Positions 5,099 to 13,532 of a stretch of DNA of 64,000 bases are shown one piece after another. The notes below the pieces were generated by a model. The model had not been told where the DNA came from and did not search any database. It was given only the letters and a program-made list of their open reading frames with translations. Positions within the stretch are counted from its first letter, which is position 1, and each line of letters starts with the position of its first letter. The translations under genes were made by a program, and so were the position numbers. The stretch is from Escherichia coli (GTDB lineage Bacteria > Pseudomonadota > Gammaproteobacteria > Enterobacterales > Enterobacteriaceae): NCBI RefSeq assembly GCF_003790525.1, contig NZ_CP033635.1, one strand, 5' to 3'.

Positions 5099-6061
5099 TT
5101 ACGTCTCCTCTTGGGAGTGGATAATATGGGTGCCTGTTTCGCCACGCAGTGCCGCGGACAGGCATTCAGGCGTGGTGATAATCACTCTTTTACCTCCACG
5201 TTCCAGGAACTCCAGACTGGCAAGAATCTTCGGTAACATACTCCCAGGCGGGAAGTGACCCTCCTGCATGTAACGGGCCATCGTTAGGACATCCACTGTA
5301 TCCAGTGCATGCTGGTTGGGTTTCCCAAAATGAATACTCACTTTTTCCACGCCGGTGGTGATCACCAGAATGTCGGCGTGAATTTCGCGAGCCAGTAGCG
5401 CGCTAGAGAGATCTTTGTCGATAACCGCGTCCACGCTTTGGTAATCCCCTGCGTCAGTACGCACCACCGGAATGCCACCGCCGCCCGCGCCAATCACCAC
5501 AAAGCCTTGCTGGATCAGAGTCTTAATGGCAGGTGCTTCGACAATACGTTTCGGTTCCGGCGAGGCGACCACGCGGCGATAGCCCCGTCCGGCATCTTCA
5601 ACAAAACGCCAGTCAGGGTTTGCCTTTTGTAGTTCATCACGCTGGTTTTCACTAAAGAATGCACCGATGGGCTTGGTGGGATGGACAAACCCCGGATCGT
5701 TTTTATCCACTTCCACCTGAGTCACCACGGTGACGGCTTTTTTCTCGCCGTGAGGCGCCAGCCGGTTGTTCAGCGCCTGCTGGATCAGATAGCCAATGCC
5801 GCCTTGCGTATCCGCCACACAGTTCGCCAGCGGCGTTAAGGGTAGCCCTTCGCGCTCGTGGGCTATCTCCGCGCGGCGTAAATCCAGACCGACCTGCGGC
5901 CCGTTGCCGTGGGTCAGCACAATGTCGTAATCGGAAGCCAGCATTTCCAGAACCGTATCGGCGACGGCCTTCACCGCCTCCGCCTGATGCTCAATCGACT
6001 GGCTGGCGTTATCTTTGATAATGCTGTTGCCACCAATGGCAACGACCACAAGTTCTTTCAT
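5099..6061 (-). CDS. Carbamate kinase (ArcC/YahI-like)
   Basis: 320 aa beginning MKELVVVAIGGNSI, with DIVLTHGNGPQVG and a GGGGIPV motif characteristic of the carbamate kinase / amino acid kinase fold. Last gene of the minus-strand operon. Confidence 0.8.
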   Translation of the reverse strand: MKELVVVAIGGNSIIKDNASQSIEHQAEAVKAVADTVLEMLASDYDIVLTHGNGPQVGLDLRRAEIAHEREGLPLTPLANCVADTQGGIGYLIQQALNNRLAPHGEKKAVTVVTQVEVDKNDPGFVHPTKPIGAFFSENQRDELQKANPDWRFVEDAGRGYRRVVASPEPKRIVEAPAIKTLIQQGFVVIGAGGGGIPVVRTDAGDYQSVDAVIDKDLSSALLAREIHADILVITTGVEKVSIHFGKPNQHALDTVDVLTMARYMQEGHFPPGSMLPKILASLEFLERGGKRVIITTPECLSAALRGETGTHIIHSQEET

Positions 6062-6087
6062 AGAATTATCTTCCGTTTGCAGGCTAT

Positions 6088-7638
6088 TCAGGTCGTTTTA
6101 GTCTCTTCCTGCTCAGACGCAGCCACTGTTTCACGGCTATCAATAACATGCTTGAGGGCAAACATAGCAAGCATCATCAGGTAGGCCACAACAAACACAA
6201 TCGAGCTGCCTTCCGCAAAGCCAACCGCTGGGGAGTGAATCACGCCAAACAGCGATAACAGTGCTCCAAAGGATGCAGCTATCGCCCCGCGCAGCGGCTT
6301 ATTCATAATGGCAAAGATCGCAATGCATCCCCACAGCATGCTGGCCAGCGGTGCACCGCTTCCCAGATGCATCAGTCCATCGTAATAGACGCCTTTGCTG
6401 TGCAACAGGTCGCTACCAAGTTTCTCAGCGGATGTTCCGGCTGCGCCCATCACGCTGTTAACGATGGTCAATGCCCAGTTGGCGACCCATGGGAACAGAC
6501 AGATGAAAATAACGGGAACCTCGACTTTAGGAGTTTCTCGCACCACCTGATTGGCGGTTACCACACCGATAAAAACCAGAATTGGCACTATAGCAGTCAT
6601 GGGAATAATGGCGAGCATAAACGCGCCCAACCCAAACAATGGCACCAGGAACATAGTGATGCCTGATGCGAGGGTATAGCAGATACTAGCGCCCATAGCT
6701 TTCCAGCCTGCATGCCCAACATATACGGTTACCGGGAACGGATTACCCAGCATGCAACCGAGCATGGAGGCAAAGCCGTTCGCCATCATGACCTTACGGG
6801 TGTTGTATTCATCACCAGCCGCGTGCGCACTTTCAATGTTCTCGAGGTCAAAAATGTAGTTAGCCAGGCCCAAAGGAACTGCAGAAGCCAGATATGGCAG
6901 AGCGTGCGGCAAACCTTGCAGGAAGCTCCTTACATGAATTTCCGGCGGGTTGAAGCCGAAGGAAGACATCGACGCTTTAATGTCTTCCGGGCTTTGTAAA
7001 CCGGATATCCACGCTAGGGACGTACCAGCAATCAGCAACAGCAAACCGGTAGGAATATGGGGAAAAATCGGCTTCTTACCGAACCAGTTAATGAAGATCA
7101 ATAACAGGACGATGAAAGAAACTGTCGGCGCTTCGAACGCTTGCAGCATCGGGTTCATTGCCAGCAGTAATAACCCCAGTCCGGACAGACAAGAAAGCAG
7201 CACTGTACGCGGGATCATCTTGCGGATAGTCTCACCCAGGAAGGAGCCACCGACCAGGATCAACGCTTCGACAAAGCACCACACCAATCCTATCTGAATA
7301 GCAAAGTTGGCATCTTTGGTTTGCTGATAAACCGGCATCAGCACCAGGAATGTCACGGTAAAGATTGAGGGTGCGCTCGGTCCAGACGGCAGCGCCGTTA
7401 CATCGCTACGACCGGTTTTCTTCACCATCTGTAGACCAAACCAGGAGTAGCAGACACTGGCCGCCAGCACTGCAAGACCAAAGGCAGGCGCAATGCGTCC
7501 ATAGACAATTTCAGTAGGGATTCCGACGACAAAAATTAGCAGACCCATCATTGTCAGCAGGTTAGTCAGATTGTTGGTCATCAGTCCAAAGTAAGCCGCC
7601 CAGTCACCACGTTTCCATTCTAGTTTTATGCTGTTCAT
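6088..7638 (-). CDS. Polytopic membrane permease (possibly NCS2/AzgA-like nucleobase-type transporter)
   Basis: 516 aa, highly hydrophobic with many predicted TM segments, embedded between the DUF1116 and carbamate kinase genes. Family assignment is tentative. Confidence 0.45.
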   Translation of the reverse strand: MNSIKLEWKRGDWAAYFGLMTNNLTNLLTMMGLLIFVVGIPTEIVYGRIAPAFGLAVLAASVCYSWFGLQMVKKTGRSDVTALPSGPSAPSIFTVTFLVLMPVYQQTKDANFAIQIGLVWCFVEALILVGGSFLGETIRKMIPRTVLLSCLSGLGLLLLAMNPMLQAFEAPTVSFIVLLLIFINWFGKKPIFPHIPTGLLLLIAGTSLAWISGLQSPEDIKASMSSFGFNPPEIHVRSFLQGLPHALPYLASAVPLGLANYIFDLENIESAHAAGDEYNTRKVMMANGFASMLGCMLGNPFPVTVYVGHAGWKAMGASICYTLASGITMFLVPLFGLGAFMLAIIPMTAIVPILVFIGVVTANQVVRETPKVEVPVIFICLFPWVANWALTIVNSVMGAAGTSAEKLGSDLLHSKGVYYDGLMHLGSGAPLASMLWGCIAIFAIMNKPLRGAIAASFGALLSLFGVIHSPAVGFAEGSSIVFVVAYLMMLAMFALKHVIDSRETVAASEQEETKTT

Positions 7639-12215: not shown

Positions 12216-12602
12216 AATCGATCTCCTGCTCTTTTTAAGATTTTACAAATATAACAAGCCAAGAATAGCAACAGAATGCATAGAGCACCATCCATTTAAA
12301 ATTTACTCATCATTAGACCATGAATTATTGAAACAAAATTAACAATAATAAGAGAGTGTGATATAGTTCAATATTTCTATTATAGCTGGGGATATTTTAG
12401 CCATTAATCCGCAGTCATATAAATAAAGGTGGTCTGCAGCACGGATAGCTGCCTGTAATTAAAATTCAGATGTGTGATTTCCTTCAAATTAAATGTAAAT
12501 ACGGTGTTAATTTTTTCAAAACTGATTGTCGGTTATAAGAATTACAAATACATTCAACAATCATCATGTTGTGTATGTGTATTGTCGCCAGAGGAAAGAA
12601 AG

Positions 12603-13532
12603 ATGAATTCAATATTTACGGAAGAAAACTTACTGGCATTTACTATGGCTGCCCGCTATAGAAGTTTCAGCAAGGCGGCGAAGGAACTGGGCTTAACCAC
12701 ATCGGCAATTAGTTACACTATCAAGCGTATGGAAATGGGGCTTGACGTGGTGCTTTTTACCCGAACTACCCGTAGCATTGAGCTGACCGAGCCCGGGCAC
12801 TACCTTTTTTGCAAAGCAACTGACCTGCTCAACGATTACCACTCCATCATACGTAGAGTTGATGCCATCGCTCAGGGAATTAAATCCCGGGTGCGCATTT
12901 GTATTAATCAACTGTTGTATACCCCTCAGCATACAGCTCGGCTTCTGCAAGTGCTCAGGGAACACTTTCCAACCTGCCAGATAGCTATTACTACAGAGGT
13001 GTATAATGGCGTCTGGGATTCACTCATTAATAACCAGGCTGATATCGCCATTGGCGCGCCCGATACGTTACTGGACGGTGGTGGAATTGATTACATTGAA
13101 ATCGGCATGATTCGTTGGTTGTTCGCGATTTCTCCGGCTCATCCGCTGGCGTTTATTCCTGAGCCCATTTCTGAGAGTCAGTTACGTCTGTACCCGAACA
13201 TCATGGTGGAAGACACTGCAAACACTATAAACAAAAAAGTCGGCTGGCTGTTACACGGGCAAGAGTCGATTCTGGTTCCCGACTTTAATACTAAGCTTCA
13301 GTGCCAGATCCTGGGGGAGGGAATCGGTTTTCTGCCAGACTATATGGTGCGTGAAGCGATGGAAAAGTCATTGCTGGTGACACGGCAGATCCACAACCCA
13401 CGTCAGGATTCACGAATGCTGTTGGCAACCAGGCATTCGGCAAGCGGTCAAGTCACTCAGTGGATAAAAAGAGAATTTAGCTTACAAGGAATACTGACGG
13501 GGATTTATCAGGATTTGATGCATCGAGCGTGA
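12603..13532 (+). CDS. LysR-family transcriptional regulator, divergent from the ankyrin operon
   Basis: N-terminal HTH LLAFTMAARYRSFSKAAKELGLTTSAISYTIKRME is typical of LysR; about 309 aa from the ATG at 12603 (the track ORF begins earlier at 12474). Divergent arrangement with a 387-bp shared intergenic region. Confidence 0.8.
   Translation: MNSIFTEENLLAFTMAARYRSFSKAAKELGLTTSAISYTIKRMEMGLDVVLFTRTTRSIELTEPGHYLFCKATDLLNDYHSIIRRVDAIAQGIKSRVRICINQLLYTPQHTARLLQVLREHFPTCQIAITTEVYNGVWDSLINNQADIAIGAPDTLLDGGGIDYIEIGMIRWLFAISPAHPLAFIPEPISESQLRLYPNIMVEDTANTINKKVGWLLHGQESILVPDFNTKLQCQILGEGIGFLPDYMVREAMEKSLLVTRQIHNPRQDSRMLLATRHSASGQVTQWIKREFSLQGILTGIYQDLMHRA

Follow-up and report, generated by a model that had tools for sequence, protein, structure and literature searches.

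In a 64,000-nucleotide stretch of Escherichia coli DNA (contig NZ_CP033635.1; here called the window), we identified a copy of the complete yah-type locus of Enterobacterales; this copy has been captured by insertion sequences (IS), has spread horizontally, and is cut in its last gene, yahJ. The captured block occupies positions 5065-13550, and its closest relatives are found in Citrobacter. It consists of six tightly packed minus-strand genes and a divergent plus-strand gene for a LysR-type regulator (5099-13532), and it is a xenologous second copy of the yah operon known from E. coli K-12. The features of this cassette are the following.

5099-6061, minus strand: carbamate kinase of the YahI type, 320 amino acids (NF009007; 93% identical to YahI, 38% to AllK/YbcF)
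6088-7638, minus strand: permease, 516 amino acids, with a predicted 7+7 inverted-repeat (UraA/SLC26) fold
7721-7743, no strand assigned: hairpin in the gap between the AllG-like and permease genes, from a scan for terminator-like elements and from reading of the sequence
7751-9169, minus strand: AllG-like (DUF1116/YahG-type) subunit, 472 amino acids (PF06545; 90% identical to YahG, 46% to AllG/YlbE)
9169-10716, minus strand: AllF-like (FdrA/YahF-type) subunit, 515 amino acids (NF004760; 83% identical to YahF, 38% to AllF/FdrA)
10676-11524, minus strand: AllH-like (DUF2877/YahE-type) subunit, 282 amino acids (PF11392; 53% identical to YahE)
11610-12215, minus strand: ankyrin-repeat protein of the YahD type, first gene of the operon, 201 amino acids (ankyrin matches; 72% identical to YahD)
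12216-12602, no strand assigned: divergent control region, with conserved blocks in a MAFFT alignment
12603-13532, plus strand: LysR-type regulator of the YahB type, 309 amino acids (85% identical to YahB, 39% to AllS)

This arrangement had been described from the letters and their open reading frames (ORFs) without database searches (the sequence-only reading), and a six-frame ORF scan recovered the same six co-directional genes divergent from the LysR gene. The sequence contains both features to which that reading had drawn attention, a TGATG stop/start junction (9167-9171) and an overlap of 41 nucleotides between the AllH-like and AllF-like genes (10676-10716), and the family labels of that reading (DUF1116, DUF2877, FdrA and carbamate kinase) are upheld by the scores of Pfam and NCBIfam profiles. 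The LysR gene starts at the ATG at 12603, in agreement with the NCBI Prokaryotic Genome Annotation Pipeline (PGAP), and YahB aligns with its product from residue 1. All seven ORFs are intact, so the cassette is not the set of disrupted pseudogenes for which the sequence-only reading had allowed.

Among the loci kept for comparison, those of Citrobacter youngae, C. braakii and C. werkmanii are the closest relatives. With C. youngae and C. braakii the window gives a single colinear alignment of 85% nucleotide identity that extends from 5065 to 13545-13560, and the encoded proteins are 80-96% identical. The similarity to this eight-gene locus of Citrobacter and other Enterobacterales runs from just past the LysR stop codon to codon 11 of yahJ, and the control-region motifs are the same. 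In contrast to the Citrobacter locus, the window copy is cut in yahJ, is flanked by IS remnants, and resides in mobile DNA of E. coli.

The cut lies right after the stop codon of the kinase gene, where a remnant at 5065-5098 (minus strand) preserves the first 11 codons of yahJ with the ATG changed to ATT. These codons read ATT AAG GAA AGC GAC CGC CGC CGT GAA TTT TTA in the window and ATG AAG GAA AGT AAC AGC CGC CGC GAG TTT TTA in Citrobacter, the latter encoding MKESNSRREFL, which is also the start of K-12 yahJ. This 33-nucleotide remnant is visible only in the DNA alignment with Citrobacter; the homology ends at 5065, and IS debris comes next. A tblastn search of the window found no ORF for yahJ or yahC, in line with the earlier remark that the cassette has no deaminase partner. 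The deaminase is thus missing by truncation, yahJ having been cut off at the capture of the block.

Cassette and K-12 proteins YahB, YahD, YahE, YahF, YahG and YahI belong to the same families and have the same order and lengths, as the sequence-only reading had noted for the lengths, and they are colinear and 53-93% identical over their full length (85% for the LysR protein, 72% for ankyrin, 53%, 83% and 90% for the AllH-, AllF- and AllG-like subunits, and 93% for the kinase). At the nucleotide level the identity is 69-89%, and the permease gene is without a counterpart in K-12. At its native chromosomal position, on the betT-pdeL side, the K-12 locus has yahC, an intact yahJ and, as yahH, an array of repetitive extragenic palindromic (REP) elements, whereas the cassette has the permease gene in the slot of the REP array and is located in a selC island, about 11 kb from selC, and on plasmids. 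The possibility that the block is simply the ordinary yah locus, which the sequence-only reading had itself raised, was rejected on the grounds of nucleotide identity, different gene content and coexistence with the native locus. Searches with the whole block return two to three places per chromosome and those with the permease gene alone return one (for example, two versus one in PK8276); because the block places exceed the permease places, a second, native-type copy of yah is implied in the same chromosomes.

The sequence-only reading regarded the permease as a dedicated extra. The gene is indeed present here and absent from K-12 yah, but it is not an add-on. A scan of species-representative genomes with a permease profile built from 24 sequences yielded 152 loci, and the best 80 of these were used for gene-order counts. 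The permease gene stands beside a carbamate kinase gene in all 80, with AllG in 79, AllF and ankyrin in 77 each, YahJ in 71, and AllH in 56; yahC is found in none. The modal order, ankyrin-AllH-AllF-AllG-permease-kinase-YahJ, accounts for 43 of the 80 loci, and 21 more have the same order minus AllH. In K-12, the gap between yahG and yahI (L003 8745-9165) holds yahH, which consists of four tandem units, each of about 100 bp, of REP or bacterial interspersed mosaic element type in the exact slot occupied by the permease gene in other Enterobacterales; yahH has been described as 'filled with REP23 sites' (PMC11551758). No remnant of the permease gene was found in this gap by tblastn. Because the permease lies beside the kinase in every locus counted, nearly always with AllG, AllF and ankyrin, it is an ancestral core component, and the K-12 form is derived by its loss, with a REP array in its place.

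The kinase gene has a history that may differ from that of its neighbours. Its synonymous divergence (dS) from K-12 yahI is 0.41, and values for the ankyrin, AllH-like, AllF-like and AllG-like genes are 1.4-3.7 (dS of the LysR gene is not estimable). The kinase shares 93% identity with E. coli YahI and 90% with its Citrobacter counterpart, whereas every other cassette protein is closer to Citrobacter. These values suggest a mosaic cassette that arose by recombination with the native locus or came from an unsampled donor.

The cassette genes are under purifying selection. The ratio of nonsynonymous to synonymous substitution rates (dN/dS) is 0.03-0.13 in every estimable comparison with K-12, Enterobacter and Aeromonas orthologues, including 0.05-0.11 for the ankyrin gene and 0.06 for the permease gene; dS is too saturated to be estimated for the LysR gene and for the Enterobacter AllF pair. 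Chance ORFs can be dismissed, since dN/dS is low and dozens of species have this gene order.

The surroundings of the cassette contain the following features, for which PGAP annotation was taken from a region of 99.9% identity in the record of strain TUM9803 (NZ_CP135671.1).

3017-14898, no strand assigned: 11.9-kb mobile segment made up of IS remnants, the cassette and more IS remnants (megablast against plasmid pMTY1886_IncF)
2992-4263, plus strand: pseudogene of an ISL3-family transposase, with a frameshift, on the left flank (PGAP of TUM9803, L001 17894-19165, offset 14902; ORF 3208-4263)
14218-14849, minus strand: IS3-family transposase fragment on the right flank (PGAP of TUM9803, L001 29120-29751; ORFs 14206-14547)
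23054-24238, minus strand: tyrosine recombinase (integrase), a 394-codon ORF annotated as integrase in TUM9803
24538-24632, minus strand: tRNA-Sec (selC), attachment site of the island (ARAGORN)

The tRNA-Sec gene with its adjoining integrase ORF, about 11 kb from the cassette, confirms the earlier placement on a horizontally acquired selC island. The region has an integrase by a tRNA gene, debris of mobile elements and a variable presence: with the permease gene as marker, the cassette occurs in 141 of 5,426 complete E. coli genomes, at 151 places, of which 106 are in plasmids and 45 are chromosomal. Window positions 3017-14898 align with pMTY1886_IncF (L002 12918-24796) in one megablast alignment of 11,883 nucleotides and 99.65% identity. 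On this plasmid, two IS1 elements with terminal inverted repeats bracket the segment, and their outer ends abut the 9-bp sequence CATGCAGGA, a target-site duplication inside a split serine acetyltransferase gene. The plasmid copy therefore has the structure of a composite transposon of IS1. The inner end of an IS1 is exactly where homology with the window starts, and no IS1 ends are present in the first 20 kb of the window, so a copy like that in the island is the likelier source. The block is also carried next to sitA by pAPEC-O2-ColV, and PLSDB contains 70 plasmids with the block at an identity of at least 99%; of 86 matching plasmids, most are typed as conjugative and five are from Klebsiella. 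Among the E. coli genomes listed as carrying the permease gene, isolates from chickens, ducks and turkeys dominate.

In such a setting, the island and plasmid copies might be inert cargo that rides passively with the ColV virulence region. The truncated yahJ, the IS debris on both flanks and the IS insertions inside the cassette in some records (H9, H35) would fit this explanation, and the position near sitA on the ColV backbone would allow hitch-hiking. However, all seven ORFs are intact and are annotated as intact in nearly every record among the matches listed, the six-gene order without YahJ is native and conserved in Aeromonas and Janthinobacterium, and the cassette supplies a permease that the native E. 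coli locus lacks. In addition, yahJ is near-core (5,042 of the 5,426 E. coli genomes), and YahJ, which has a twin-arginine translocation (Tat) signal peptide, is regarded as a substrate of the Tat pathway (PMC7549933). As a periplasmic and near-core protein, YahJ could act in trans; this suggests that it acts upstream in the periplasm and that the cytoplasmic core may work without a yahJ of its own. A yahJ mutant of extraintestinal pathogenic E. coli (ExPEC) has been reported to compete slightly less well in vivo (PMC7549933). We consider passive carriage very unlikely.

The same plasmids carry a third cluster of FdrA, DUF1116, DUF2877 and carbamate kinase genes about 7 kb from the cassette (pMTY1886_IncF L002 30412-38434; pAPEC-O2-ColV L014 24993-26446). 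It is the cluster of the tkt1 island, or GR29, of B2 ExPEC, with the order isochorismatase-AllH-AllF-AllG-carbamate kinase-allophanate hydrolase C domain (AH_C)-NCS1 permease-LysR (PMC3349570, PMC12928451). Like the cassette, it is an FdrA/DUF1116/DUF2877/carbamate kinase module that belongs to the accessory DNA of E. coli, and the IncF plasmids that carry the cassette carry it too. It differs in its identity of 34-48% to the cassette, in having no ankyrin gene and an NCS1 'cytosine' permease, and in its extra genes for a cysteine hydrolase and an allophanate hydrolase C-domain protein.

Several smaller observations concern the island itself. The permease query finds two places in the TUM9803 chromosome NZ_CP135671.1, and the cassette may thus be at least partly duplicated there. 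Window positions 28659-35912 (about 7.2 kb, between yicI and yicH) are without a counterpart in TUM9803, whose region is near-identical elsewhere and has a 1.3-kb IS3 insertion that is absent from the window. An Rfam scan gave one sub-threshold match, to the Hfq-binding small RNA isrC at 14776-14891 on the minus strand (31.2 bits versus a gathering threshold of 39, E = 0.0017), and nothing else; this match is outside the operon, where the segment common to window and plasmids has its right edge.

The products of the cassette point to carbamoyl-transfer chemistry. All three subunit families of the AllFGH class are present: an FdrA-type protein (CoA_binding plus Ligase_CoA; 490 bits against NF004760, cutoff 433), an AllG-like protein (PF06545, E = 6e-90) and an AllH-like protein (PF11392, E = 2e-22). 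The kinase gene is co-directional with the subunit genes in one operon, and its product scores 629 bits against NF009007 (cutoff 266) and 345.6 bits against the ArcC equivalog model TIGR00746 (cutoff 358.25), which is below equivalog level. The AllF-like protein matches PDB 3DMY (FdrA), and the AllG-like protein is about 72% identical to PDB 3CLQ, which we take to be a protein of Enterococcus faecalis. The name 'acyl-CoA synthetase FdrA' was rejected as a description of function. The phosphohistidine loop of the succinyl-CoA synthetase alpha subunit falls in an alignment gap of the FdrA-like protein, which makes a CoA-ligase role unlikely, and the homologous AllFGH is a carbamoyltransferase (PMC11326118).

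Purified AllF-AllG-AllH is an oxamic transcarbamylase (OXTCase), which interconverts oxalurate plus phosphate and oxamate plus carbamoyl phosphate, and allFGH is co-transcribed with the gene for the catabolic carbamate kinase AllK (PMC11326118, PMC9843812). The cassette has the same three families beside a carbamate kinase, an AllS-like LysR gene nearby, and presumably the same logic of ureide to carbamoyl phosphate to ATP. The kinship with both the yah cluster and AllFGH plus AllK that the sequence-only reading had proposed is borne out by BLAST identities and family profiles, and in both cases it is one of paralogy. Identity to AllF, AllG, AllK and AllS is 38-46% (38% for AllF and 46% for AllG), AllH gives no BLAST match, and no all genes are nearby; the cluster is thus best described as a paralogue, not an orthologue, of AllFGH. 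Further differences are the gene order, which is F-G-H in allFGHK and H-F-G in the cassette, the additional ankyrin, permease and ancestrally periplasmic amidohydrolase genes of the cassette cluster, and its position outside the allantoin regulon. Moreover, the boundary between AllF and AllG is shifted, such that the C-terminal tail of AllF/FdrA corresponds to about 45 residues at the N terminus of the YahG-type protein. This shift, together with the TGATG coupling and the overlap of the AllH-like and AllF-like genes, supports a putative physical complex like that of AllFGH.

The AllH-like protein is the least conserved of the three subunits, with only 26-32% identity in clusters from Janthinobacterium, Avibacterium, Brevibacillus, Bosea, Trichococcus and an enterococcal-type contig. 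In contrast, the ankyrin protein is 72% identical to YahD, 86% to its Aeromonas homologue and 63% to that of Brevibacillus; between E. coli and Brevibacillus, AllF is 67% identical and AllH 27%. Because ankyrin is as conserved as AllF and far more conserved than AllH, its pattern argues for a specific partner role rather than that of a generic scaffold. In Bosea and Trichococcus the ankyrin proteins are fused to tetratricopeptide (TPR) repeats.

The AllH/DUF2877 gene is absent, and ankyrin is kept, in loci L005 and L012 and in 21 of the 80 species loci (for example in Enterobacter, Leclercia and Aeromonas cavernicola). The enterococcal-type cluster has AllH and no ankyrin. Since clusters without AllH keep ankyrin although E. 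coli AllFGH needs AllH for full activity, ankyrin and AllH may be partly interchangeable.

The permease has no Pfam match even at E values up to 10 and no NCBIfam match, and a profile of 24 sequences found no sequence match in the PDB. An AlphaFold (AF2) model with a predicted local distance difference test (pLDDT) score of 78 has the 7+7 inverted-repeat fold of UraA, and Foldseek ranks SVCT1, UraA, UapA and AZG2 about equal to BicA, SLC26Dg and other SLC26 carriers. The RefSeq label 'xanthine permease' (NCS2/AzgA) is unsupported, because there is no sequence match to Xan_ur_permease or AzgA and the fold, which SLC26/SulP anion carriers have just as well, does not separate nucleobase from anion carriers. 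Judged from the model, either planar heterocycles or small organic anions could be transported. In the Firmicutes and Proteobacteria sampled, orthologues share 62-95% identity, and the wider family comprises about 300 clusters at 27-38% identity. In the enterococcal-type cluster (L016 11198-12379) and in Trichococcus (L017 11485-12669), a protein of about 393 amino acids follows AllG in the slot of the 516-residue permease. The two copies are 68% identical, have 8-10 predicted hydrophobic, transmembrane-like segments, give no Pfam match, and are probably an alternative transporter for the same pathway.

In the scheme that we favour, the permease would be an importer. It could instead be a product exporter or an antiporter of precursor and product, like ArcD and AguD. 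ATP-yielding catabolic transcarbamylase pathways, such as those of arginine deiminase and agmatine deiminase, are typically paired with an antiporter (overview in PMC6022934), and E. coli excretes oxamate from allantoin almost stoichiometrically (PMC11326118). The Brevibacillus cluster also has a separate NCS1 importer besides the permease. However, the permease is the sole transporter in most loci, and carriers of the 7+7 fold are usually symporters or anion exchangers, so that both modes are possible. We regard an export or exchange role as rather unlikely.

The regulator clearly belongs to the LysR class, since it is 85% identical to YahB and its homologues carry HTH_1 and LysR_substrate domains. 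Among NCBIfam models it scores best with AllS (268 bits, where 372 would be needed) and PunR. When 12 intergenic regions of Enterobacterales and Aeromonas were aligned with MAFFT, conserved blocks emerged in the control region. They include a dyad, ATTGTTAAT-N5-TTCAATAAT, at 12324-12346, and there is a further ATTGTTGAA half-site at 12553-12561. The dyad is consistent with a candidate LysR site. Within the operon, the hairpin at 7721-7743 has a perfect 10-bp stem in the 112-nucleotide gap between the AllG-like and permease genes and is without a T-run on the coding (minus) strand; at this position the Enterobacter gap is only 12 nucleotides. The hairpin could be a candidate element for mRNA processing or stability that sets the ratio of enzyme to transporter.

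We propose that the YahB-type regulator, a relative of AllS and PunR, would activate the divergent operon, probably via the dyad at 12324-12346. The permease would import a ureide, most likely an N-acyl-urea or a ring-derived carbamoyl compound such as oxalurate or the product of an AtzC/CodA-like deamination, and might also exchange it for the amide product. In the cytoplasm, the AllF/AllG/AllH-like complex with its ankyrin partner would convert ureide and phosphate to carbamoyl phosphate and an amide or amine, and the YahI-type kinase would use carbamoyl phosphate and ADP to yield ATP, NH3 and CO2. In the ancestral locus, the Tat-exported amidohydrolase YahJ would make the transported compound outside the cytoplasm; because its own yahJ is lost, the window cassette would use only already processed compound or rely on the near-core chromosomal yahJ. 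We infer the chemistry from homology to AllFGH and AllK, and the direction of transport, the role of ankyrin and the regulator site are likewise inferred. The general outline of ureide import, phosphorolysis to carbamoyl phosphate and ATP formation by the kinase seems to us somewhat better than evenly supported. It is analogous to the arginine and agmatine deiminase pathways, in which a deiminase or deaminase, a catabolic carbamoyltransferase, a carbamate kinase and a transporter also provide ATP (PMC6022934). The likeness is one of analogy only: the carbamoyltransferases of those pathways are trimers of the aspartate/ornithine transcarbamylase (ATCase/OTCase) fold, whereas the cassette has the unrelated three-subunit AllFGH type and a transporter of another family, and the hydrolase of the full locus is periplasmic and AtzC/CodA-like.

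Several points weigh against this scheme. The reaction could differ from that of AllFGH, because identity is only 38-46% and the AllH-like protein has no BLAST match to YlbF (AllH). Full activity of AllFGH depends on the presence of each of its three subunits (PMC11326118), whereas AllH is missing altogether from 21 of the 80 species loci. The fold of the permease fits anion transporters (SLC26, BicA) and nucleobase transporters alike and thus does not fix the substrate class or the direction of transport, and generic consensus scans of the window for promoters and terminators gave results at chance level. Without yahJ, the pathway of the window copy may be crippled. Selection since transfer is not measurable, because the island and plasmid copies are at least 99.6% identical. 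Finally, literature searches on yah function returned no biochemical or genetic data for any yah-type cluster, and these genes are still listed in the y-ome (PMC11551758).

With regard to the substrate, any one named compound is unlikely when taken singly. The cassette could be a second OXTCase system for exogenous oxalurate or parabanate. Oxalurate would enter through the permease, perhaps in exchange for oxamate, the complex would turn it into carbamoyl phosphate and oxamate, and ATP would come from the kinase; such a system would correspond to the stand-alone 'oxalurate fermentation' known from enterococci. The minimal form with permease, AllFGH-like subunits and kinase, native in Aeromonas and Janthinobacterium, fits a substrate that needs no prior processing, the regulator is closest to AllS, and yah-type AllG is about 70-72% identical both to PDB 3CLQ and to the AllG of the PucR-regulated enterococcal-type cluster. 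The hosts are mostly poultry, which suggests a link to compounds derived from uric acid. Poultry excrete uric acid, and urate oxidation gives parabanate and oxalurate. Early work on Streptococcus faecalis, as summarised by later papers, described an inducible oxalurate pathway that comprises OXTCase and has a third carbamate kinase to itself (refs 78-79 in PMC6022934; refs 22-23 in PMC11326118), and the same papers cite parabanic acid as an inducer of that OXTCase. However, E. coli already has AllFGHK, and the enterococcal-type contig, which has PucR, AllH-AllF-AllG and the 393-residue membrane protein, is without an adjoining ankyrin, kinase or permease gene. YahJ, an AtzC/CodA-like periplasmic protein found in 71 of the 80 loci, would not be needed for oxalurate. 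We therefore hold oxalurate or parabanate to be an unlikely answer.

Another possibility is an amino-substituted pyrimidine or triazine, which periplasmic YahJ would deaminate to an oxo-heterocycle, a cyclic ureide of the cyanurate or barbiturate type, for import by the permease and opening or cleavage by the complex with ankyrin to give carbamoyl phosphate. Among solved structures, those of AtzC (E = 2e-43) and cytosine deaminase are nearest to YahJ, and in NCBIfam its neighbours are also cytosine deaminases. In Brevibacillus, a non-homologous deaminase of the cytidine deaminase (CDA) fold replaces YahJ, and the cluster includes an NCS1 transporter resembling allantoin permeases. Regulators of the PucR family accompany the related clusters in Brevibacillus, Bosea, Trichococcus and the enterococcal-type contig; the founder of this family regulates purine catabolism in Bacillus subtilis. 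The permease fold is also common to nucleobase transporters. Against this possibility, the conserved cluster is without a ring-opening hydrolase, the sole proven substrate of AllFGH is a linear N-acyl-urea, the window copy is without YahJ, and the deaminase specificities are guesses from distant homology. An amino-ring substrate thus appears quite unlikely.

A more far-reaching version of the ureide scheme, which we judge improbable as a whole, is a self-contained, ATP-yielding fermentation of a ureide from host or diet in which ankyrin is indispensable as the fourth subunit of an enzyme of the AllFGH class, the permease founds a new family of ureide transporters or antiporters, and the native and mobile loci are complementary halves. 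Oxalurate or parabanate from uric-acid oxidation, or a deaminated aza- or amino-pyrimidine, would each be one candidate for the ureide. If this were true, the native locus would contribute periplasmic YahJ and the cassette the permease that the native locus lacks, and together they would restore a pathway that Citrobacter has in full; this could explain the enrichment on ColV plasmids of poultry isolates.

Public sequence records have contained the block for years, since pAPEC-O2-ColV, and yah is a recognised, uncharacterised paralogue of allFGHK. New here are the identification of the block as a complete Citrobacter-type locus that is truncated in yahJ and mobilised by IS1, the recognition of permease and ankyrin as conserved core components, the proposed periplasmic first step, and a pattern of reciprocal loss between the native E. 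coli locus (no permease) and the mobile cassette (no YahJ). This pattern lends itself to clean experiments with natural genetic material, because K-12 can be given the cassette and Citrobacter has the full locus. The yah genes are one of the larger uncharacterised blocks of K-12, and the AllFGH class of enzymes was biochemically identified only in 2024. This y-gene cluster is now defined as an eight-gene system in more than 150 species, with a regulator, an ankyrin protein, a putative three-subunit carbamoyltransferase, a transporter without Pfam match, a carbamate kinase and a Tat-exported AtzC/CodA-like amidohydrolase. Because K-12 is without the transporter, it may be a poor model for this system. 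In poultry-associated and extraintestinal E. coli, the module travels with ColV virulence plasmids, and if its substrate is a ureide derived from urate or nucleobases, it would represent a new anaerobic route to energy and nitrogen in the gut.

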